Source: a virus. Taken from it: a DNA stretch of 64,000 nt. Position 1 is the first letter of the stretch. Each line of letters begins with the position of its first letter. Where the stretch lies: positions 17,642 through 81,641 of the IMG/VR virus record IMGVR_UViG_3300010399_000005; one strand, 5' to 3'. Below the pieces are notes generated by a model. It saw only the letters and a program-made list of their open reading frames with translations, searched no databases and was not told the DNA's origin. A program made the translations under genes and the position numbers. Positions 1,711 through 58,085 of the stretch are shown here, in pieces.

Positions 1711-2810
1711 TACAAGTGCTCCATGTCACGGTCATACGTACGTCGTATGGTGTGCTGCATGTTCGAGCCGTCGACACACTCCATAGTCCACGTCATCTCG
1801 AGGAAGCGGTCTCCCTCAAAGTCCACGACGTTGAAGTGATCGTGTCGCGGGTCAGGCGGGCCTGAGAACTCAACGGTCTCGAAGGGAAACCTCCAGCCAC
1901 GACACAGCGACCTTGCGGCGAAGTCCGCGTCCTGCTGTGTCGCGATCCCCTGCATCTGCTCGACGTGTGAGACGACGAAGCCTCGGTTCTCGATTGAGTG
2001 TGGTGCTTCAGGTGGGATGTCACAGATCCCATAGACCGGAAGATCGGTGGCTCCGTTGTTGATGACGATGAAACGGTTTGGTAGCTCGAGGATGTTGGTC
2101 GACCTTGTGACCGTTCCTCTGAACGTTCGAAGACCCGCCGGGTAAGACAGCACATCACCGGCAGCCGCTGTGAAGGGATCAGGCATCGGTCCAAGCTGAC
2201 CTACACCCACGTTGTCGAAGTAGAGGTCGTGAAAGCCGATCATCATCGCCAGCTCGTTGATGACGCGAAGCCGTGATGTGCCGATCTTCCAGGACAGCGC
2301 CTCAGCCTGTGGTGTGATGACCGCTGGCGACGTCTGCATGTTGAACTCGATGGGAATCTCTGAGAGCAGACCGTAGATCGCGTCGGTGATGACGGTGCCC
2401 GGTGGATACGAGACCGAGTGATCAAGCTCTTGATCGACGATGAGAAGTTGATCAACTAGACCGCACTCACCGACGGTAAGTTCCACGCCGTTCATCGCCG
2501 TGATGCGATGTCGTGAGACGTCAGCGAATCGAAAGAGTCCTAGTGGCCACTCGGTCTTATCACTCAAGATCATAAAGACACGGACGCTCCAGCGCACCGC
2601 GTTGATCTCATCGATCTCATTGGGCAGCACGCTAAAGTTCTGCATCGTTCGCTTGATGCTTCGTGAGATGTCGACCGTGATACTAGGTGGGGAGTCACGA
2701 TCCATCAGCTCAAGCGTACCAAGTGGTTCACTACCGTCGTAGAGGTCGAAGCGCCACGACGATGCACGGTAGTTCGTCTCGAGGTCGAGAAGTGGGTTCG
2801 TCATCGTCAT
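1710..2810 (-). CDS. Minor tail/baseplate hub-like protein
   Basis: Second gene after tape measure; 366 aa; WPLGLF, LYFDNVG and PDPRHD motifs resemble actinophage hub (DUF5047-like) proteins. Confidence 0.6.
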   Translation of the reverse strand: MTMTNPLLDLETNYRASSWRFDLYDGSEPLGTLELMDRDSPPSITVDISRSIKRTMQNFSVLPNEIDEINAVRWSVRVFMILSDKTEWPLGLFRFADVSRHRITAMNGVELTVGECGLVDQLLIVDQELDHSVSYPPGTVITDAIYGLLSEIPIEFNMQTSPAVITPQAEALSWKIGTSRLRVINELAMMIGFHDLYFDNVGVGQLGPMPDPFTAAAGDVLSYPAGLRTFRGTVTRSTNILELPNRFIVINNGATDLPVYGICDIPPEAPHSIENRGFVVSHVEQMQGIATQQDADFAARSLCRGWRFPFETVEFSGPPDPRHDHFNVVDFEGDRFLEMTWTMECVDGSNMQHTIRRTYDRDMEHL

Positions 2811-5386
2811 GCTGCGACACTTCCCGCGTTCTCGGCGGTGACGACTGGTGTCGTGACCTCGGTGACGACGATGTCACCGGTCCAGATATCACCCACATAT
2901 GGGTCGTGGAAGTTCGTGAACGTCGGTACCTGCACACCGGCGTACCAGCGGTTACCACAGGTGTCACGTACGACGAGACCCACCGTGGATCGACAGATCT
3001 CATGAAGTCTGTGCATCACATCGATGCAGGGCTTTACCGGAGTGCACAGTGCTTGTATGAGAAGCTTACGCTTGAAGCGCAGGCCCAACTGCTCGAGAGG
3101 TCGGAACGCGACGAGACCATCACGACCGTACACCTGACGATATACGTGCTGGTCCGAGTCCAACACCTCCCACTCCCGCTCGATGGGAAGCGTCGCACCG
3201 TACGTCTCGGGGAAGGCGACGTTCAGCGTCGGATCGAGTGGAGCGGTGATGATGAGATCTGCTCCCGTCGGTGCTTGTGACGTCACGCAGACCGTCTCCA
3301 CGAAGTCCGACAGCGCGCCGTCGATCCTCTTCTGTCGCACTCGATAGCAGACCTGTGTACCGTAGACCATCGACCAGTCATCCCAGCACGTAGGCGCACC
3401 GGTGACCGCTGCTCCGGTGACAGTCACACTGCCTGTCGGCGTGATGAACGCCACGCTGACCCAGTCGTTGTCCATCACGGCCATCTCGCGCCGCTGGACC
3501 TCATAGTACACGAAGGTATCTTGAGTGAGCTTGGTGGCAGACCAGCACACGTGGTTGTATGTGATGCCTCGCACTAGGCAGTCCGTGAGCTCGGTGTTAC
3601 ATGGGTCACATGCACCACCCGACACAAGCTGTGTGAGCGTACTCACCGACGCACCGGTGACCGCTGCGACCTCCGAGATGAGCATGACCTGGAGGTCACC
3701 ACGCCGGAAGTTAGCGGGATCGTGAAGCTGCAGTGAGCTGCCGTTTGGGAACCGATAGGTCAGTCCCTGTCCAACACCGGCGGCGGTCTGATCGGAACCC
3801 GTAGGCGCGATGTTCGTCGACGCCAACGCACCGATGCGCCAGGGGTTGCCAGGGTTAGTACCGTCGTCGGTGAGAGCGATCGTGTCATCCAGGACGTACT
3901 CGACGGTGCTTGCGGTCGCATCAGCGATGTCGACCGATGTTCCCAAGTCGACGAGCACCGAGTGGTACTCATCACCCCAGATGTCATTACCCACCTTAGG
4001 TGAGTCGTCCCAGAGAGACTCGGTGATGAGCGCCGGGCCGGCGATGGTCGTACCGACGTTGTTCTTCAGTGTGACACTCACCGTCTTAGGATCGGTGGGT
4101 GTTCCCGTGCCACGAAGTAGTGCGACGTTGGTGCGCACATATCGGTACTTGGTTGTGCCCGTCACTAGAGCGAACGTGTGCTTTGCTCGACTCACCGTGT
4201 TGGATGACTTAAGCGGTCGCACACCCGAGTACGTCGTGAGGTACGGTTCGGTGTCGAGTGACTCGGTCGAAGCAACGCTCTGGAAGAAGCGGATCGCTGG
4301 AAGACCCTGCTGCCTGACGTCCAGAGCGGTGGGAACACCGAAACTCGTCCCGAATGAGGTGTCCTTCTTCGCGGTGTACAGGTCCCAGTCGAGAAAGGTG
4401 TAGTGCACCGGAGTGATGCCATCGACCTTCATGTCATTGAGTGCGGTCAGGTCATACCGCGAACCAGGTGAGATGTAGTCATCCTGTGCACACGGTGCTC
4501 TGACGACCGCGACGTACTCGACACCTGCAGTGACGGGAACTGGGTTGGCAGTCCCAGGCACGAAAAAGCTTCCGGTGTGCCAGAGGTACGGTGCCGTGGG
4601 AACGATGATCCCAACACCGGCGCGTCGCTCGGTGATGTAGTCGACGTGTAGGTTCAACCAGTCGAAGATGTTTGGTTGCGTGTCGACCGCACGCAGACGC
4701 AGGCGTCGACTGCCCACGCTCGACGCGAACTGTCTGATGAGCGTAGGAGTCCACAGTGACCACGCGTTCGGTGAGAAGTGATCGATGTACGCTTCAGCGA
4801 TGTGCATGGTCTGCGTGCCTGAGTAGCCGCTTGGGAACAAGCGCTGCCACAGGACACCACCATCATTGTCGATCCGATCCACCCACGTCTGTCTGTAGAA
4901 GAAGGTGTCGATGCCCAGAGCCAGCACGTGTGCCGTGAGTGGGAACGTGTTTGCGGTGGACATCTGAACCGTGACCTGTGCGGGGTTAGGTCCAGACTGA
5001 AAGAGGGCGAGTCCATCATTGGGAAAGTCGAGCTCATCATTCTCAGGAGTGGTGAACGACTCATCGACGACGTCCGAGTTCGCGGTCATCACAACGGTGA
5101 AGCTCGCGCTCTGGATCGGTCCTGGGTCGAAGCCTGATACAGGAATGAGCTCGATGAGCCAAGGACGACGCTGGTTCACGTAACCAGGAGCACCGAAGAT
5201 TAGTGGGTTGTTAGTCTGCGCTCCTGAGAAGACCGACACCTGTGACACAGTGCCCGACTGCTGCGCACGAAAGCGCAGCACCCACATGTCCTGGTTGGTC
5301 GCGATGACGTTGTTACTCGCACCTACACCTTGAAACTCGATGCCGATCGTGTCAGGTGAGTGTGGGTTCCATGAAGAACGTGGCAC
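2807..5386 (-). CDS. Minor tail protein (distal-tail position)
   Basis: 859-aa beta-rich ORF directly after tape measure, with an FN3-like YEVQRR...YRVRQ segment. Confidence 0.6.
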   Translation of the reverse strand: MPRSSWNPHSPDTIGIEFQGVGASNNVIATNQDMWVLRFRAQQSGTVSQVSVFSGAQTNNPLIFGAPGYVNQRRPWLIELIPVSGFDPGPIQSASFTVVMTANSDVVDESFTTPENDELDFPNDGLALFQSGPNPAQVTVQMSTANTFPLTAHVLALGIDTFFYRQTWVDRIDNDGGVLWQRLFPSGYSGTQTMHIAEAYIDHFSPNAWSLWTPTLIRQFASSVGSRRLRLRAVDTQPNIFDWLNLHVDYITERRAGVGIIVPTAPYLWHTGSFFVPGTANPVPVTAGVEYVAVVRAPCAQDDYISPGSRYDLTALNDMKVDGITPVHYTFLDWDLYTAKKDTSFGTSFGVPTALDVRQQGLPAIRFFQSVASTESLDTEPYLTTYSGVRPLKSSNTVSRAKHTFALVTGTTKYRYVRTNVALLRGTGTPTDPKTVSVTLKNNVGTTIAGPALITESLWDDSPKVGNDIWGDEYHSVLVDLGTSVDIADATASTVEYVLDDTIALTDDGTNPGNPWRIGALASTNIAPTGSDQTAAGVGQGLTYRFPNGSSLQLHDPANFRRGDLQVMLISEVAAVTGASVSTLTQLVSGGACDPCNTELTDCLVRGITYNHVCWSATKLTQDTFVYYEVQRREMAVMDNDWVSVAFITPTGSVTVTGAAVTGAPTCWDDWSMVYGTQVCYRVRQKRIDGALSDFVETVCVTSQAPTGADLIITAPLDPTLNVAFPETYGATLPIEREWEVLDSDQHVYRQVYGRDGLVAFRPLEQLGLRFKRKLLIQALCTPVKPCIDVMHRLHEICRSTVGLVVRDTCGNRWYAGVQVPTFTNFHDPYVGDIWTGDIVVTEVTTPVVTAENAGSVAA

Positions 5387-8300
5387 CTAGATCGTCCTCA
5401 CTGTAAGTGTAAGTGCTCGTCGTCTCAACGTCGCCTCGACACTGTCGGTGAACGCATCAGCGGCGGCCTGAGCTTCAGCGTTGGAGACCGCTCCGGCGAA
5501 CTGCACGTGAACGTTCTCGATCGTGATCCCACCAAGAACGGCCTGTGTCGCTGCAGCCACTGTAGCCGACGAACCTGTAGTGCCGTTACTTGACACACTT
5601 GAGGGCTGACTGATGAGATCGAGCAGTCCTGACTTCGCGGCCAGTGCGGCGGCACGACGACGATCATCCAAGGGGATGACGACCTCGGGAGAGTGTAGGA
5701 CCGCGAACGTGTCCTTGTCGATGATCCCACCACCGGCAAAACCGGGAATGCTCGGGAAGCTCGGGAGTGAGATGTGTGGAATGCTGTTCAACGTTGCGAT
5801 GAAGTTATTCACCTTTCCGATCGCGTTGTTGATCATTCCAGCGACGATGCCAAATGCTTGTCCTACACTATGAACGATGCCCTCAACAAACTCAAGTGCA
5901 CCACCTAGTGCATGCGCGACATCACCGAGTGTTTGGAACACTGACGAAGCAAAGCGTATGTTAAATGCGAGAAAGTCTGCTGCAGCTGACACACCATCAG
6001 CTGCGTTTCGAAGACCAAAGAGAGTGAGCTGAAGTGCGAATGTGATCGGAATCATCAAGTTCGAGATGACATCGTGATTGTTCTTAATCGTATTCGCAAG
6101 ACTTAGAAACGATGGTGCGATCACCGAAGAGATTACAGCTGCAAGTGGTAGAAACACGTTGTTCATCAAGTCCTTGACAACAGGACTTAGTTCACTCGTG
6201 ATGACAATCCAAACATTATGAAGTTCATTCTTAAGATTAGTAAGTGCCGGAACAACTGATGTGTTCCAAGTGTTAACGATTGGATCCCAGACATTAATGC
6301 GTAGATCATCAATCGCAGGCTTTAGTGTGTTAGTGATCTCAGTTGATGTATCGTGAAGTATGTTCTTAGCTTGAGTAAGTGCGCTGTTACCACGTGTTTC
6401 GAGCAAACCAATGAAAGGTTCAAGTGTATTAATCCTAAAGTCATCCCAGGCAGGCTTTAGTACGTTTGTGATCACTGCTGCGATGCCACCGAACACGAAG
6501 TCTCTAAGATCAACGAGTCTAGGTATCAGGTTAAACGCAATGAGATCGTGAACAGGCTGGATGACATTCAAACGAAGATCATCCCACACCGGCTTAAACA
6601 CATTCGTGATCGTATCTGCGATCGGACCAAGCTTGTCGTGTATGAGCTGAAACGCTGTCGCGATCAGTGCGAGTGGGCTCGCGACCGGTGCGAGGAACGA
6701 GAGCAAATTCGCAAATGCTGTGACGATGAACGAAAGAGCGGTGGCGATCGCAAGAAGTACTGGAGCGCCAATATCTCTTACGAAGATCGTCGTCAGTTGA
6801 AGTAGTGGAGGTATGATCGGCAAGACAGCGATGACGAGATCTGCGAACGCGATGGCAAGTGCAGCGAGTGCGGTAGCGAGCTCAGGCAAGACCGGGGCGA
6901 TAGCCTCCATGACCACGATGAACTCATCAGCGAACAGACCGATAATCTCCACGAGAATCGGTGAGAGACGCTTTAGGATCTCAAGAAGTGCACCACCCAA
7001 GATCTCAGCGACCTGCGTGATCGCTGGTCCCAGAGTTGTGGCGAACGCATCCGCGATCCGCTCGATCACTGGTGCGAGTACCTCAATGAGCTGGATAGCT
7101 ACACCGGCCACGGCATCAAGAAACGGCGTCAACGCCTTAACGACCGTACCTATGATCTTGGCTAGGGGTGGTAGAAGGACCTCAACGAGGCGTGCAATGA
7201 TCTCGAGAAACGGCTCAAGTGCGTGAACGAGTGGCGGGATGACCTGACCCAGTGCCTTGAAGATTGCACCGACTCCCGCCGCCAGAGGTTCGATAGCAGG
7301 CTGCAACTCACGGATACCCTCACCAAACCCCCTGAAGAAGTCGGCGATCGCCGGTCCCAGGACGTTGATGATCGGAATGAGCGCAGCGAGAAGTGACTGA
7401 GCGATGTCTGAGATAGCAGGTGCGACCAACTTCAGCGTATCACCAATGACCGTCGTGAGAGGCGTCAACAGCGTCTTCACTTGGTCGACCAGGGGGAGGA
7501 ACGCATCAGTCAGCGCGAGAGAGATGGTGTCCTTGAACGTTGAGAACAGACCAAGCAGTGTCTGTGACTGTGCAGCCATCGCACCAGCCGCGCCGGGGAA
7601 CTCTTTCATACCCTTCAGCAGTGCTTGAACTGCCTTGTCCGCGGGTATGAGGCCATCACTGACCTGCTGCTGAAGTGCTTGGGTCGAGATACCCAGACCC
7701 TTAGCCATCGCTTCAAAGACCGGGAAACCTGGGAGTGCTTCACCGATCTGCAGTAGCTCTTCGGTGGAAGCCTTTCCCTTCGATGCCATCTGAGAGAAAG
7801 CGAGGATGACACGATCGATGGCCTCAGGTGGTGCACCCAGCACAGCAGTGAGGTCACCGACCGTACTGATCGTCGGGATGATCTGGTCACGTGTGATCTT
7901 CAGTGCACCGGCCGTCGCGAGCAGTGACTTGGCGTTGTTCGCCAGGCCAGCGAACTCAAACGGCGTCGTCGCAGCGAACTGCTGCATCTCGCGAATGAAC
8001 TTGTCAGCTTCCTCAGCAGAACCTAGGAGAGCCTTGAAGCTGACCTGTGTCTGCTCAAGTGATGCCGCAGTCTTCAGACCAAAGCCAACGGCTGCGGCCG
8101 CACCAGTTGCGAGTGCACCGCCTACGAGTAGTGCACCTGTCTTAAGAAAGCCAAGTGCAGCGCTTGCGCGACCTGAACCCTCACTTACGTTCTCACCGAC
8201 CGCATCACCAGCGACCCTAGACTCGGCCTCCAGTCGCCCGAACGCATCCGCACCGCCGATACTCCGTAGCGACCGGTCGGCCGAGTTCGCCGCCTCCTTG

Positions 8301-53887: not shown

Positions 53888-54235
53888 ATGCCACGACCTC
53901 CCCGTCGTCCCGGACCTCGCGGTCGCTCTCCTAAGGAGAAGGAGGCGCTCCAGCGTCAGCTCGACCGTGACCGCCGCAACGAACAGCGTGAGCGTGACGA
54001 GCTCTACCGCAACCAGGCTGACGACTGGGTCACCTTCTACAACGCCGAGCATCACGTCAAAGAGACGACCGGACGTCAAGACCAGGCAAGCTACCAGGCC
54101 CGGGCACAGAGCGTGGTGGATCATCATCAGCGTCAACAGGAGCGACTGGCCGAGCAGCAGCGTGTACGTGCTGAGCAACAGAAGGCGCAGGCCGAACACC
54201 AGAGGCGCCTCGACGAGCAGAACAAGCGACGATAG
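53888..54235 (+). CDS. Arg/Gln/Glu-rich coiled-coil protein
   Basis: AAGGA RBS, ATG 53888 in frame with ORF 53816..54235. Confidence 0.6.
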   Translation: MPRPPRRPGPRGRSPKEKEALQRQLDRDRRNEQRERDELYRNQADDWVTFYNAEHHVKETTGRQDQASYQARAQSVVDHHQRQQERLAEQQRVRAEQQKAQAEHQRRLDEQNKRR

Positions 54236-54265
54236 GTATCTCACACAAGAATCTCGGTTTCTCGG

Positions 54266-54294
54266 TTGACCGTGGCTGCCCGGTCTGGTAGCCT
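54266..54294 (+). promoter_or_regulatory. Promoter of the Y RNA-Ro60 locus
   Basis: TTGACC-N17-TAGCCT with extended TG. Confidence 0.7.
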
Positions 54295-54364
54295 GACGTC
54301 GCGGTTCTGTATCCGCAGCTTGGGCATCTTAAACACGGGAACGATGACAGCGTGGTCAACGATC

Positions 54365-54431
54365 TCGGGTGAGCCGGAGGACTTCGGTTATCATTGGAAG
54401 AACGCCGGAGTCCACTTACTCGCTCACCCGA
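54365..54431 (+). ncRNA. Short Y RNA-like RNA 1
   Basis: TCGGGTGAGC/GCTCACCCGA terminal stem, CGGAG opposite CACTTACTC, upper stem GACTTCGG/CCGGAGTC. Confidence 0.75.
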
Positions 54432-54462
54432 CCCCCGTGTCACCCTCCAACTAAGATCTCAC

Positions 54463-54534
54463 GGTCCGGGTCGGAGGACGTCGGTTATCAGCTTATCACC
54501 TGAACCCCCCGGCGTTCACTCACTCATCCGAACC
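54463..54534 (+). ncRNA. Short Y RNA-like RNA 2
   Basis: GGTCCGGGT/ATCCGAACC stem, CGGAG opposite CACTCACTC, upper stem GACGTCGG/CCGGCGTT; same layout as RNA 1 with compensatory changes. Confidence 0.75.
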
Positions 54535-54590
54535 ACCTTCTCAGACGCTGGAGACCTTTCAGCGGGTCACCAGGTCGACGAGAGGGATAC

Positions 54591-54740
54591 GTGTCCCCGG
54601 GCCGGAGATGGTCGCTTACCAGGAAACCGAAGACGGACGTTCGAGTCGTCCCACCCCTACGCTAGATGAGTCACAGGGGTGTAGCTCAGTGGTAGAGCAT
54701 CGGTCTTTAGCGGTCTTCACTCACTTGTCTAGGGTCACAC
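54591..54740 (+). ncRNA. yrlA: YrlA-type Y RNA with circularly permuted tRNA-like domain
   Basis: ACCGA stem, T-arm GGACG-TTCGAGT-CGTCC, closed acceptor stem CACCCCT/AGGGGTG, TA, D-arm GCTC-AGTGGTA-GAGC, TCGGT; flanked by CGGAG...CACTCACTTG; 24 nt upstream of Ro60. Confidence 0.9.
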
Positions 54741-54764
54741 CCCAACGTACGACGAACGGAGCTT

Positions 54765-56420
54765 ATGATGACGGATCCACTGCGACGCATCTCGACGCGA
54801 AGCACGCCTCAGACCGAGCCCATCCCGGGTCGCACCGACCAGGTGCGCAACGCTGCCGGCGGCTACGTCTTCCAGGTCGACGACTGGCGGCGCCTGCGGC
54901 GCTTCCTGGTGCTGGGCACCGAGGGTGGCACGTACTACACCTCGGAGCAGAAGCTCACTGCCGAGAACGCCCAGACCGTCCTGGGACTCATCGAGCACGA
55001 CGGTCAGCGTGTCGTGCGTGAGCTTCTCGACGTCTCACTGCGTAACCTCGCTCCTCGACAGCAGCCGACGCTCTTCGTCCTGGCCGCGTGCACCGCTGCC
55101 TCGGACCCCGGAGTCCGACGCTTCGCCCTTGACGTGCTTCGTCAGCTGTGCCGCACGGGCTACCACCTGTTCACGTTCGCCAACTACGTGGAGCAGTTTC
55201 GAGGCTGGGGTCGTGGACTTCGTGACGCCGTCGCCGAGTGGTACACCGGTCAAGCACGTGATCGTCTCGCACTGCAGGCGGTGAAGTACCGCCAGCGCGA
55301 CGGCTGGACGCACCGTGACCTCCTGCGGCTCGCGCATCCCAAGACCGATGATCCGGTGCGCGACGCGATCTTCAAGTGGATCACCCACCGTGAGGACATC
55401 ACCTGGGAGAACGGTGGAAGTAAGCTTCCCAACGTCATCGCGGGCTTCGAACTCGTCCAGCGTGTGACCGACCCCAAGCGGGTCGCCCAGGCTGTGTTGG
55501 ATCACGACCTTCCCTGGGAGTGCCTGCCCGACGCGACGCTGCGCTCTCCCGAGGTCCTGGAGGCGCTGGTCCCGACCATGGGACTCACCGCACTCACCCG
55601 CCAGCTCGGGCGCATGGCCTCGACGGGCGCACTCACCTCGGGCTCACAGCTCGAGAAGTTGGTGCTCGAGCGGCTGCGGGTTCCCACCGCGTCCGACGAG
55701 CGTCACATCGGTGAGTTCCTCTCGCGGAACGCCAACCCCTTCGTGCAGTCGAAGGTCCACCCCTTCCAGCTGCTCCTCGCCGAGTCGACCTACCAGGCTG
55801 GACGAGGTGTTCGAGGGTCGCTGACCTGGAAACCCACCAGTCGCATCGTCGACGCCCTGGACGCGGGCTTCTACGCGGCGTTCGGGTCACTTCAGCCGTC
55901 CGACCGCACGACACTCGTGGCACTGGACGTCTCGGGGTCGATGGACTTTAGCACGATCCTGAACACGCACATCACGCCGCGTGTGGCGTCCGCCGCCATG
56001 GCGCTGATCACGCTGCGCTCCGAGCCCGACGCTCACGTGATGGCGTTCAGTGACACGCTGGTGCCGGTGAGCATCTCGCCTCGCCAGCGCTTGGATGATG
56101 TGGTGCGCACGATCTCGAACATCCCCATGGGCGGCACCGACTGCTCACTGCCGATGCATTACGCTCTCGGCCGTAAGCTCCATGTCGACACGTTCGTGGT
56201 GTACACGGACAACGAGACGTGGGCCGGTAGGGAGCATCCCACGCAGGCGCTCCGGCACTACCGCGAGAAGATCAACCCCTCCGCCCGTCTGGTCGTCGTG
56301 GGTCTGACCGCCACCGACTTCACCATCGCCGATCCCAAGGACCCGGGCACGCTCGACGTCGTCGGCTTCGACGCCTCGGCGCCGCAGGTCATCGCCGACT
56401 TCAGTGCGGGGAGACTGTGA
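54765..56420 (+). CDS. rsr: Ro60/Rsr TROVE-domain RNA-binding protein
   Basis: QVRNAAGGYVF, RLRRFLVLGTEGGTYY, KYRQRDGWTHRDLLRLAHP, vWA MIDAS DVSGSM, GGTDCSLPM, YTDNETW, LDVVGFD. Confidence 0.96.
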   Translation: MMTDPLRRISTRSTPQTEPIPGRTDQVRNAAGGYVFQVDDWRRLRRFLVLGTEGGTYYTSEQKLTAENAQTVLGLIEHDGQRVVRELLDVSLRNLAPRQQPTLFVLAACTAASDPGVRRFALDVLRQLCRTGYHLFTFANYVEQFRGWGRGLRDAVAEWYTGQARDRLALQAVKYRQRDGWTHRDLLRLAHPKTDDPVRDAIFKWITHREDITWENGGSKLPNVIAGFELVQRVTDPKRVAQAVLDHDLPWECLPDATLRSPEVLEALVPTMGLTALTRQLGRMASTGALTSGSQLEKLVLERLRVPTASDERHIGEFLSRNANPFVQSKVHPFQLLLAESTYQAGRGVRGSLTWKPTSRIVDALDAGFYAAFGSLQPSDRTTLVALDVSGSMDFSTILNTHITPRVASAAMALITLRSEPDAHVMAFSDTLVPVSISPRQRLDDVVRTISNIPMGGTDCSLPMHYALGRKLHVDTFVVYTDNETWAGREHPTQALRHYREKINPSARLVVVGLTATDFTIADPKDPGTLDVVGFDASAPQVIADFSAGRL

Positions 56421-56620
56421 AGCTCATACGACTTGCTCCATACAACTACGAGCTGATCATACTCGATCGTTGGCGAGTACCCTACGCTCCGGCATACGGG
56501 TGGCGGCGAGTACGCTACCCATATAAGAGCGGTGATGTCACGGTGCTTGGTCCTCAAGTGTTCGTCTCTGAGGATGAGACCGTCATCAACTGGCGTGGCG
56601 TCAACTATGGGAGGTTGTGA
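56417..56620 (+). CDS. Small hypothetical protein coupled to Ro60
   Basis: GTGA overlap with the rsr stop; LGPQVF...VINWRGVNY motif. Confidence 0.6.
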   Translation: MKLIRLAPYNYELIILDRWRVPYAPAYGWRRVRYPYKSGDVTVLGPQVFVSEDETVINWRGVNYGRL

Positions 56621-56630
56621 TAGAGTAGAT

Positions 56631-57060
56631 GTTTCTCCACAAGTCTGCTGGCACTCGCTCCGCGCTACACGGAGGAGCATGTGAGACTCAGCTTAATCGT
56701 ACAGGCATCACGACGAGGCACCGCACCTAGAGGCGAAGTTCAGTGATGTTGTAGGCGAGCTTCGTGAGACTTCCCGGTCACTGAAACCAGCCAGACTGGT
56801 GTAGACCGCTGACGAGCGTGGAGGGTCGGGTCCTCCTCGGGAAGCGCATCAAGCTGCGAGAGTCCCCATCCCTACCTCCCCCATTCGCGCGTGGGGACTC
56901 TCCAGCTTGGTACACTAGACCCCGTCGGTTGTCGCACTGGGAGCCACCCTCCTTCAGTGAAACTTCGACCAGAGTGATGGTCGAAGCCGACGTCGTGGGA
57001 GTCTCCATCCGGTCTCACTCTCCCTCTTCCACCGGGTGGAGGCTCCTCGATCGGTGACCG
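56631..57060 (+). ncRNA. Large structured non-coding RNA candidate
   Basis: No convincing ORF; at least six helices, a long-range closing stem 56775-56784/57051-57060 and loop-loop complementarity; extended -10 TGA-TAGAGT at 56618-56626. Confidence 0.6.
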
Positions 57061-57135
57061 TTGGACCACACTTCGGTGTAGACTAAGACACAACATTGAC
57101 TTGGACAACCTGTCCCCCGGACACGAGGAACACTG

Positions 57136-57705
57136 ATGAGAAGCTTCACTCAGGACTACGTCCTGCGCGACTACGACTTTGACACGGGTCGTATGCGAAT
57201 GGTCTCGTTCAATGGTAGACGCGTCGCCGACGCCTCCAGCCGTGAGATTGAGCACAGCCACTCGCCCGACCGCAAGGCCCAGCGTGGTGAGCGCTGCTCG
57301 GCGTGCCGCTGGCTGGAGGTGCGGATCTACATCGCTAACGACGAGTCGTCTGGCACCGCCTACGTTCTCGAGACGGTCGGTCGCTCCCTGGTTGACGGCG
57401 AGCACGATCGCTTCAGGACCCGGCGGTTCCGTGACCCATGGCTGGTCATCGCCAAGCTGGCCAAGCGTCACGATGACACGACGTTCCTCCCTCTAGTCGC
57501 TCAACGCGCCCTCTCGGAGGCCGCCGAGTACGACGGTCGACTGGCCGAGCTTCTCGACACACTCGAACTCGACTCTCACGAAGTTCGCTACACCGACGAC
57601 TCCGAACGAGGCGTCGACGTCGTGGAGCCTGAGGTCGAGGATGAGGACCGATACAACCTCATCGACCCAGCGCGTCACCCGAGCGCTCACGTGTACGGAG
57701 GTTAG
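57136..57705 (+). CDS. Hypothetical protein
   Basis: GAGGA RBS; C..CRW.E..IY...YV..TVG.S.V.GE pattern. Confidence 0.7.
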   Translation: MRSFTQDYVLRDYDFDTGRMRMVSFNGRRVADASSREIEHSHSPDRKAQRGERCSACRWLEVRIYIANDESSGTAYVLETVGRSLVDGEHDRFRTRRFRDPWLVIAKLAKRHDDTTFLPLVAQRALSEAAEYDGRLAELLDTLELDSHEVRYTDDSERGVDVVEPEVEDEDRYNLIDPARHPSAHVYGG

Positions 57706-57707
57706 TT

Positions 57708-58085
57708 GTGGGCGATCGCGGTTCTCATCCCGATCTTCAGGAAGTCTCACCCATACTTCTTAAGCTTCTTCAGGAGGCCGGTGATGAGTACGGACCACTC
57801 GGTGTCGCCCGTGTGGCAGCACAGTTGACGGACGTCGAGGTACTTCTTCAAGCGCTTGGTTATGATCCTCTCCCCGAAGACGATGAGGTCAGCATACGAG
57901 TGTCAGCACTCGAGCTCGCTGTTAAGTCGCATCCACCCATCGCCGGTGCTCCGCACGACACGTGCTTCACGAAGCGTGCCTCGGTCTTTGCGCACTTCTT
58001 AAGGACCGGTGAGTCCGCTCCGGCTGAAGCACACGTTCCCGAGCCAGGCGATCCGTACGAACCACCAGTCATCGAGTCGATGTGA
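57708..58085 (+). CDS. Hypothetical protein
   Basis: GGAGG RBS; coupled to the kinase gene. Confidence 0.6.
   Translation: MGDRGSHPDLQEVSPILLKLLQEAGDEYGPLGVARVAAQLTDVEVLLQALGYDPLPEDDEVSIRVSALELAVKSHPPIAGAPHDTCFTKRASVFAHFLRTGESAPAEAHVPEPGDPYEPPVIESM

Follow-up and report, generated by a model that had tools for sequence, protein, structure and literature searches.

A fast-evolving structured noncoding element of putative function at the tail of a phage Ro60/Y-RNA island

Introduction

What occupies the space between a phage gene for Ro60 and the gene that follows it? The question is raised by a stretch of 64,000 nucleotides of DNA of a soil phage (the window), which corresponds to bases 17642-81641 of an 81,641-bp IMG/VR virus record (IMGVR_UViG_3300010399_000005) with direct terminal repeats. 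Downstream of Ro60 and of a possible 67-amino-acid open reading frame (ORF67) the window contains a gap of 515 nt (56621-57135) before the next gene. A preliminary description had placed in this gap, at 56631-57060, an independently transcribed RNA of about 430 nt with a multibranch domain and a possible kissing loop. We find that the gap does hold a structured noncoding element, which lies on the plus strand, evolves fast and ends a Ro60/Y-RNA island, with a function that is putative. Of the large multibranch RNA and its kissing loop, only a 46-nt motif (M1) and hairpins should be retained.

Phage Ro60 is common in actinophages and its roles are barely known. Among cultured phages, 357 records encode relatives of less than 50% identity, the majority being phages of Mycobacterium, Streptomyces, Gordonia and Microbacterium, and because these genera are actinobacterial the host of the present phage is probably an actinobacterium. 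For the Ro60 of a Thermus phage, sections of PMC12135203 suggest that host PNPase is hijacked through Y-like RNAs.

A conserved core motif in four related gaps

Seventy-two phage loci encoding Ro60 relatives were fetched, and among them the gap sequence is shared by L002 only, an 80.7-kb phage contig with a Ro60 that is 66% identical to that of the window. A search with the protein encoded downstream of the gap gave L002 in IMG/VR and two short metagenome contigs, L196 and L197, with none in the genome collection. The four gaps are linked by nhmmer (E values of 4.4e-08 for the window and L197, 5e-05 for L196 and L197, and 0.013 for L196 and L002). The first of these alignments joins 56722-56907 of the window to 64-259 of L197, and thus the 3' half of 56631-56775 is homologous to L197. 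A blastn search of 56400-57200 against the phage collection gave no match.

The best conserved part of the four gaps is M1, which has the form CYGACGRG, YG-U-GGWGG, a 7-nt loop, CCWCC-U-CR and GGRAVCG. Its hairpin, P1 (5+2 bp), is formed by pairing of 56817-18 with 56838-39 and of GGAGG (56820-24) with CCUCC (56832-36), with a U56819·U56837 mismatch and a loop of 7 nt. Across the four loci 23 of the 46 columns are invariant, all 28 cells of P1 (7 pairs in 4 loci) are paired and the U·U mismatch is kept throughout, whereas controls in which the partner strand was slid fall to 54-64% paired. The variation within P1 consists of one two-sided swap between A-U and U-A and one pair that is found as C-G, U-G and U-A. 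Between lineages the pairwise identity of M1 is 61-72%, compared with 40-50% at third codon positions in the gene next to it. A covariance model of the motif (R1), applied to 77 sources totalling 603 kb, finds M1 in the four loci only. A pattern scan for M1 in IMG/VR returned the L002 contig only, and in the genome collection it returned at least 120 stretches, none homologous by nhmmer among the matches listed.

M1 is directly followed by a long hairpin in all four loci. In the window this is P2, which is homologous to the hairpins of L002 and L197, and 5 of 25 pairs change on both sides among these three; the hairpin of L196 is unrelated in sequence. P2 of L002 is predicted as 17 contiguous pairs, three of which were read from the sequence as G·U, and since the minus strand would have A·C mismatches there the plus strand is favoured. 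The stretch of L002 that is homologous to the P2 loop is base-paired and leaves a loop of 3 nt, while the loops of L197 and L196 have 6 nt and 5 nt (AUUUA). A scan with the palindromic P2 pattern gave chance hairpins only.

Downstream of the hairpins all four loci carry the GGUGUAGACUA box and then ACACAAC, about 50 nt before the next start codon. The box holds the sole exact copy of GTGTAGACT in the window, and a near-copy with one mismatch, GGUGUAGACC, is present at 56798-56806, just 5' of M1. In each locus 25-31 nt separate the end of the last long hairpin from the TAGACT box. The pattern GGTGTAGACTA...ACACAAC occurs at 13 IMG/VR loci, of which only the L002 contig is related.

Two readings of P1 as part of a known fold were considered and rejected. 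The hammerhead core has the consensus CUGANGA ... GAAA around three stems, and CUGACGAG...GAA is arranged around P1 in a manner that recalls it. The core is not conserved, as the window has CUGACGAG and GGAAG, with CCGACG found instead in L002 and L196 and GAA replaced by GGAG in L002 and L197; no Rfam ribozyme matched in the gap. The P1 loop was also considered as a T-loop or anticodon loop, of which only the U at the second position is invariant, and ARAGORN was negative.

Folding of the gap

On the plus strand 56631-57060 has a minimum free energy of -187.1 kcal/mol (z = -3.65), with none of 100 shuffles as low, compared with z = -2.38 on the minus strand, which bears out the strong plus-strand structure that had been proposed. 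Better-than-chance folding is confined to the 3' two-thirds of the region. For segments of 145 nt the background was provided by 95 other segments of the same genome, with a minimum z of -2.36. As low as 56631-56775 are 74 of the 95, as low as 56775-56919 are 7 of the 95, and 56916-57060 (z = -3.81) lies below all 95 and is the sole segment outside the background range. The z-score is -2.57 for 56775-56915, and -4.22 for 56976-57064, which when folded alone forms a bulged rod. Two more hairpins that the preliminary description had located at 56631-56753 are not above chance, because most of the shuffles counted in Table 1 for the 5' segment fold as well.

The helices listed in the preliminary description do exist at their positions, with the correction that the hairpin with the C-rich loop, P2, has 21 bp with a 1-nt bulge and a loop of 23 nt. 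Three local hairpins (P2, the hairpin with the GAGUGA loop and the 17-bp hairpin) are robust in every folding context, and the pair probabilities of the 17-bp hairpin are 0.85-1.0 in all contexts folded. No U tract follows this hairpin and no plus-strand terminator was called there. The helix that would close the multibranch domain has a probability of 0.85-1.0 if the transcript ends within 56621-57135, and of 0.02 when 56400-57300 is folded. It has no homologous counterpart in the three related loci, and the multibranch RNA of about 430 nt is therefore not upheld as a conserved unit. GGAGGGT and ACCCTCC (56820-26 and 56946-52) are complementary, as had been noted, but the helix is improbable (pairing probability 0.01-0.02) because GGAGG pairs locally with CCUCC (0.87-0.93).

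The small stem 5' of M1 competes with the closing helix in the window and loses thermodynamically. It forms when 56775-56915 is folded alone, and its probability is at most 0.04 in the full window RNA. The arrangement (GGUC/GRCY) aligns in L197 and L196, with the four outer pairs kept and no two-sided change.

The proposed kissing loop rests on GAGUGA and UCACUC, which are exact complements over 6 nt. In loop-shuffled controls this pair reaches 6 nt in 3% of cases and any pair among the seven loops does so in 5%. GAGUGA and UCACUC also occur once each in the gap of L002, in the opposite order and upstream of M1, and were rejected as a homologous kissing pair given the reversed order and non-homologous position. 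Nothing homologous to the P3 domain (closed by CGUCGG/CCGACG, with the GAGUGA hairpin), to the 17-bp hairpin or to either C-rich loop is present in L002 or L197. In L196 P2 is followed by a GUCGG...CCGAC domain that is possibly analogous, homology not being established. The kissing pair and the C-rich loops, which had been likened to anti-Shine-Dalgarno sequences, find no counterpart at homologous positions in any of the three related loci. The loops of P2 and of the 17-bp hairpin each contain 13 nt that are 85% complementary to the 3' part of ORF67 (inverted repeats I2 and I3, at 56570-56582 / 57010-57022 and 56609-56621 / 56868-56880). This candidate interaction was set aside as probably due to chance, a few such pairs being estimated by chance in 800 nt.

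Coding potential and transcription signals

The gap 56621-57135 is noncoding, as had been suggested. The reading frames within it have a GC content at the second codon position (GC2) of 0.60, compared with 0.43-0.48 in real genes. One frame across M1, 'DE[RC]GG..GPP', is conserved in appearance and was rejected as coding, since a start codon is lacking, a stop lies immediately upstream and a 1-nt indel between L002 and L197 shifts the frame in L197.

The extended -10-like sequence noted at the 5' end is present (TGATAGAGT, Table 1). Independent transcription of the gap is a candidate reading, for which the only signals are such -10-like hexamers, read by eye. Among sequencing runs the sequence is listed for one DNA run, possibly that of the source sample, and for no RNA run. 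The -10 form of Actinobacteria is TANNNT. Upstream of the Y-RNA cluster a promoter-like TTGACC-17 nt-TAGCCT was read in the same manner, and L002 has TTGACT-17-TAGATT at the matching place; the promoter scan listed neither. No intrinsic terminator, defined as a GC-rich hairpin with a U tract, was found on the plus strand of 54000-58000; a terminator of the type without a U tract may still be present.

Searches for known RNA families

The preliminary description did not recognise the RNA, and the searches agree. At gathering score Rfam has no match in the whole window, and at E ≤ 10 the gap and its relatives give only generic noise from microRNA hairpin models. The Rfam models of Y_RNA, sbRNA and YrlA do not match 56600-57140 at E ≤ 10, and neither tRNA nor transfer-messenger RNA (tmRNA) models match in the gap. 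Tested for tRNA-like T and D arms with ARAGORN, the window gives only the YrlA-like element upstream. GOLLD, ROOL, OLE, HEARO, raiA and Ms1/6S, among them the large ornate RNAs, are absent at gathering score from the window and at E ≤ 10 from the gap, as is 6C at E ≤ 10. Type III toxin-antitoxin systems have near-identical RNA repeats in tandem ahead of the gene for an endoRNase toxin; here no TRF array was found and the downstream protein has no PADLOC family.

A covariance model built from four local Y stems (R2) likewise has no match in the gap at E ≤ 10, and by the available tests the gap region is not a Y RNA. On the strand of Ro60 the model finds Y-like stems in 27 of 71 other phage Ro60 loci (E ≤ 0.01), almost all within 1 kb upstream of Ro60 (mostly at locus positions 2000-3000), with two to four copies in several loci. 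Matches downstream of Ro60 are found at L007 4816-4892 and L015 4725-4791. In the literature searched, including sections of PMC4201824, PMC12135203 and PMC10690425, no such RNA downstream of Ro60 was found, supplementary tables lying outside this search. The element is new as a motif, in that no description of it was found in Rfam or in this literature.

The Ro60 island and neighbouring genes

The features of the gap and its surroundings are collected in Table 1.

Table 1. Features of the gap and of the Ro60 island in window coordinates
Feature	Position	Strand	Remarks
M1, 46-nt conserved core motif	56805-56850	+	hairpin P1 with purine-rich flanks
P2, 21-bp hairpin	56848-56911	+	C57 bulged; C-rich loop 56869-56891; directly follows M1
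Small stem GGUC/GACC around hairpin ACCAG/CUGGU	56776-56807	+	directly 5' of M1
5' segment	56631-56775	+	z = +0.76 (155/200 shuffles as good); +0.70 in background comparison
Closing helix, 10 bp with one G·U, CGGTCACTGA / TCGGTGACCG	56775-84 / 57051-60	+	also inverted repeat I7
Domain closed by CGUCGG/CCGACG	56923-56992	+	two hairpins: 56935-56958, and 56963-56986 with loop GAGUGA
Hairpin CTTCGACCA/TGGTCGAAG (RNA arms CUUCGACCA/UGGUCGAAG)	56963-86	+	loop GAGTGA 56972-77
17-bp hairpin 56997-57047 extended by UCG/CGA	56993-57050	+	17-nt pyrimidine loop (57014-30), UCACUC 57015-20
GGUGUAGACUA box with -10-like TAGACT (57079-84)	57075-57085	+	51 nt before next start codon; identical in 4 loci
Extended -10-like TGATAGAGT	56618-56626	+	1 of 2 TGNTAGAST matches in window; 2.2 expected by chance
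Promoter-like TTGACC-17 nt-TAGCCT ahead of Y-RNA cluster and Ro60	54266-54294	+	read by eye
Two classical Y-RNA-like stems	54364-54433, 54461-54537	+	Rfam sbRNA model, E 0.0033 and 0.00044
YrlA-like tRNA-mimic Y RNA	54609-54719	+	Rfam YrlA 35.5 bits (gathering score 69), E 2.7e-05
Ro60 / Rsr homologue (TROVE + vWA)	54765-56420	+	Pfam vWA_Ro60 3e-66, TROVE 1.7e-32; PHROG 850 RNA-binding protein 3.7e-80
ORF67, possible 67-amino-acid frame, reality uncertain	56417-56620	+	GTG start overlaps Ro60 stop codon
189-amino-acid CxxC protein of unknown function	57136-57705	+	syntenic in all 4 loci

Upstream of Ro60 the two Y-RNA-like stems score 81.4 and 80.4 bits with the R2 model, and in an alignment with the two copies of L002 9 of 18 pairs show compensatory (two-sided) change. 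The YrlA-like element is partly read as tRNA-Gly by ARAGORN. As all three of these Ro60-type RNAs score below the Rfam gathering thresholds, they would be missed by standard annotation. Ro60 sits inside phage RNA-gene islands, commonly with RNA genes of its own strand around it. Of 60 phage Ro60 loci scanned with ARAGORN, 26 gave one or more tRNA or tmRNA calls, some of which may be YrlA-like mimics, and an RNA gene beside Ro60 is thus unsurprising. On the same strand as Ro60, L044 has a tmRNA (5728-6074) nearby and L019 and L043 have 10-15 tRNA genes around it.

ORF67 has a gene-like GC content by codon position (0.60/0.43/0.60). Searches of Pfam, PHROGs, PADLOC and NCBIfam assign it to no family, the Atlas gave no usable match, and it is absent from L002, the closest relative, in which a tRNA-like element takes its place. 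This element (L002 4724-4915) is an unclassified RNA of about 190 nt just after Ro60 (z = -0.86), with a 7-bp acceptor stem (GGGCGUC/GACGCCC), a T arm (GUCGG-UUCGAGU-CCGGC), a large internal insertion and TAGAGT 5 nt upstream. It is called by neither ARAGORN nor Rfam.

The protein encoded after the gap has 189-196 amino acids across the loci (5372-5962 in L002, and in L196 and L197) and an invariant RGERCSACRWLEVRIY segment (CxxC). Pfam, PHROGs, NCBIfam, PADLOC and PDB gave no family or solved relative, and its structural neighbours in the Atlas are hypothetical phage proteins only.

Proposed organization of the element

We tentatively favour, at somewhat less than an even chance, a plus-strand structured noncoding RNA segment with a core of M1 and P2 and with lineage-specific hairpins, the last of which would mark the transcript end. 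The segment is noncoding, lies on the plus strand, has structure above background, belongs to no known family, and conserves M1 and P2 with compensatory changes. The island would be read in the order promoter, Y RNAs and YrlA-like RNA, Ro60 and gap, and the region may be made as a stable RNA with ends that would lie near the limits proposed here. Its functional part would be small, consisting of M1 and the P2 that follows; these are probably functional because they are conserved. M1 would most likely be recognized by a protein or engage in a tertiary contact. Everything else, namely the closing helix, the P3 domain, the C-rich loops, the 17-bp hairpin and the kissing pair, may represent lineage-specific elaboration, with modules that would be duplicated, gained and lost quickly. 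The transcript probably has its 3' end at the last long hairpin, about 30 nt before the -10-like box, and the next gene would have a promoter of its own.

Several observations weigh against this reading. The element is found at only four loci, which amount to three lineages, and M1 is absent by the R1 model from the 71 other phage Ro60 loci and is therefore not a general Ro60 partner. The identity over the whole gap is 0.44-0.58, near the level of synonymous sites. L002 is without a three-way module of about 100 nt that is kept in the window, L197 and L196, and since L002 and L197 differ by this module even though their downstream proteins are 98.5% identical, most of the region is under weak constraint. 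The shuffle control for P1 is not decisive, as 67 of 500 shuffles reach its covariation score and most of its pairs never vary. The promoter and terminator scan of 54000-58000 found no plus-strand site. The conserved inverted repeat of M1 can also be read at the level of DNA.

An extension of the favoured reading is that M1 and P2 are a new class of non-Y RNA tied to the phage Ro60 operon, M1 being recognized by Ro60 or by the machinery of Ro60, Y RNA and PNPase, with the stable hairpins acting as a client, decoy or scaffold that tunes RNA degradation during infection. This is doubtful, and we would give it a small chance only. If true, it would provide a second structured non-Y RNA beside Ro60, and so a new handle on the targets of Ro60. 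The element is rare (four loci) and mostly fast-evolving, and its present value is that of a well-defined 46-nt motif and not of a discovery.

Alternative explanations

The main rival is that the gap is an ordinary zone of 3' ends and processing, in which factor-independent terminators, sites of the RNase III type or blocks to 3'-exonucleases would give the Y-RNA/Ro60 transcript its end and its stability and shield it from the promoter that follows, with no separate functional RNA. The distance of 25-31 nt between the last long hairpin and the TAGACT box in all four loci fits this arrangement, as do hairpins of 17-27 bp, the turnover of hairpin sequences at a kept position (the P2 counterpart of L196 being unrelated) and the gain and loss of modules between close relatives. 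Co-transcription of the gap with Ro60 is plausible too, because the scan called no promoter between them. No hairpin is followed by a U tract, however, and the scan gave no plus-strand terminator, while the need for three or more stable hairpins is left unexplained. Termination, processing or stability hairpins would explain where the hairpins lie and how their sequences turn over, but would not explain the non-helical parts of M1, namely its conserved single-stranded flanks and invariant U·U mismatch; we regard this explanation as rather unlikely, yet deserving of serious weight. It is also possible to regard the gap as a structured 5' leader that regulates the downstream gene for the 189-amino-acid protein, M1 and the GGUGUAGACUA/ACACAAC box together forming one RNA that switches or is bound by the gene product. 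M1, P2 and the box co-occur with this gene in all four loci, but the co-occurrence is partly built into the search, because loci were found via the downstream gene. Six base pairs are possible between UCGGUG of the box and the 5' flank of M1, both in the window (two of them G·U) and in L196, the 3' flank of M1 can pair over 7 bp with the 5' untranslated region in L002 and L197, and in the fold of the 515-nt gap of the window the 5' end pairs with the Shine-Dalgarno region. These flank pairings involve few bases and vary among the loci, the protein has no recognizable RNA-binding family, and the box resembles a -10 element with the usual spacing to the start codon, in which case M1 would fall outside the mRNA. 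A leader of this kind is improbable.

The gap could also be imagined as the functionless remains of a decaying and duplicating RNA island, the hairpins persisting through GC-rich palindromes and recent duplication. It does contain an internal partial duplication, CCGACGUCGUGGGAG at 56987 resembling CUGACGAGCGUGGAGG of M1, as well as a repeated GTGGAGGCTC (D7) and two copies of GGTGTAGAC 277 nt apart (D8). Large indels separate close relatives and the unclassified tRNA-like element lies in the same gap of L002. Against this, M1 is clearly more conserved than synonymous sites next to a protein of only 58-65% identity, and compensatory changes maintain the pairing of P1 and P2; we give such decay little credence. 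Finally, the inverted repeats might act as duplex or cruciform DNA, in an operator, in iterons or in an origin near the primase-polymerase gene that is found 3 kb upstream. The inverted repeat of M1, with 7 nt between its arms, and the two distant copies of GGTGTAGAC would suit such an element. An invariant T·T mismatch and G·U pairs in the stems suit RNA and not symmetric DNA sites, the search for tandem repeats was negative, outside the gap each motif is present a single time per genome, and the region has a GC content of 0.55-0.63 with no AT-rich stretch. A role as DNA is the least probable of these explanations and very hard to credit.

Comparison with known systems

The known Ro60 partners, Y RNAs and YrlA (RF02553), resemble the gap in their setting, since it adjoins Ro60 on the same strand and in the same RNA island. 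There is also a likeness in form, as 56976-57064 folded alone is a bulged rod, the 5' strand of which contains GGUCGAAG and the loop of which is large and rich in pyrimidines. Y RNAs are marked by a terminal bulged stem with conserved motifs on both strands, the Ro60-binding motif being on the 5' strand of the helix that the two RNA ends form. GGUCGAAG (56979-86) fits the Ro60-binding motif GNCGAAN0-1G given in sections of PMC4201824, and the rod can be closed with GACC (57056-59), yet its probability in the full fold is 0.0. The octamer class to which GGUCGAAG belongs, GGTCGRAG, is common (24 copies in 81.6 kb). Unlike Y RNAs, the gap has neither the GGUUAUC nor the CACUYACU element and contains no tRNA-like domain.

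The 6C RNA of Actinobacteria consists of hairpins with C-rich loops. The gap is similar in having two stable hairpins with C- or pyrimidine-rich loops (those of P2 and of the 17-bp hairpin), a GC-rich composition and a probably actinobacterial setting. It differs in that it does not match the Rfam model of 6C and in that its C-rich loops are not kept in the relatives. The RNase III sites of T7 are intergenic processing hairpins of phage early operons, and the long imperfect hairpins of 17-27 bp in the gap, placed between units and before a promoter-like box, resemble such processing or terminator hairpins. The gap differs from these in having no U tract and in the presence of M1, a motif with non-helical parts that accompanies the hairpins.

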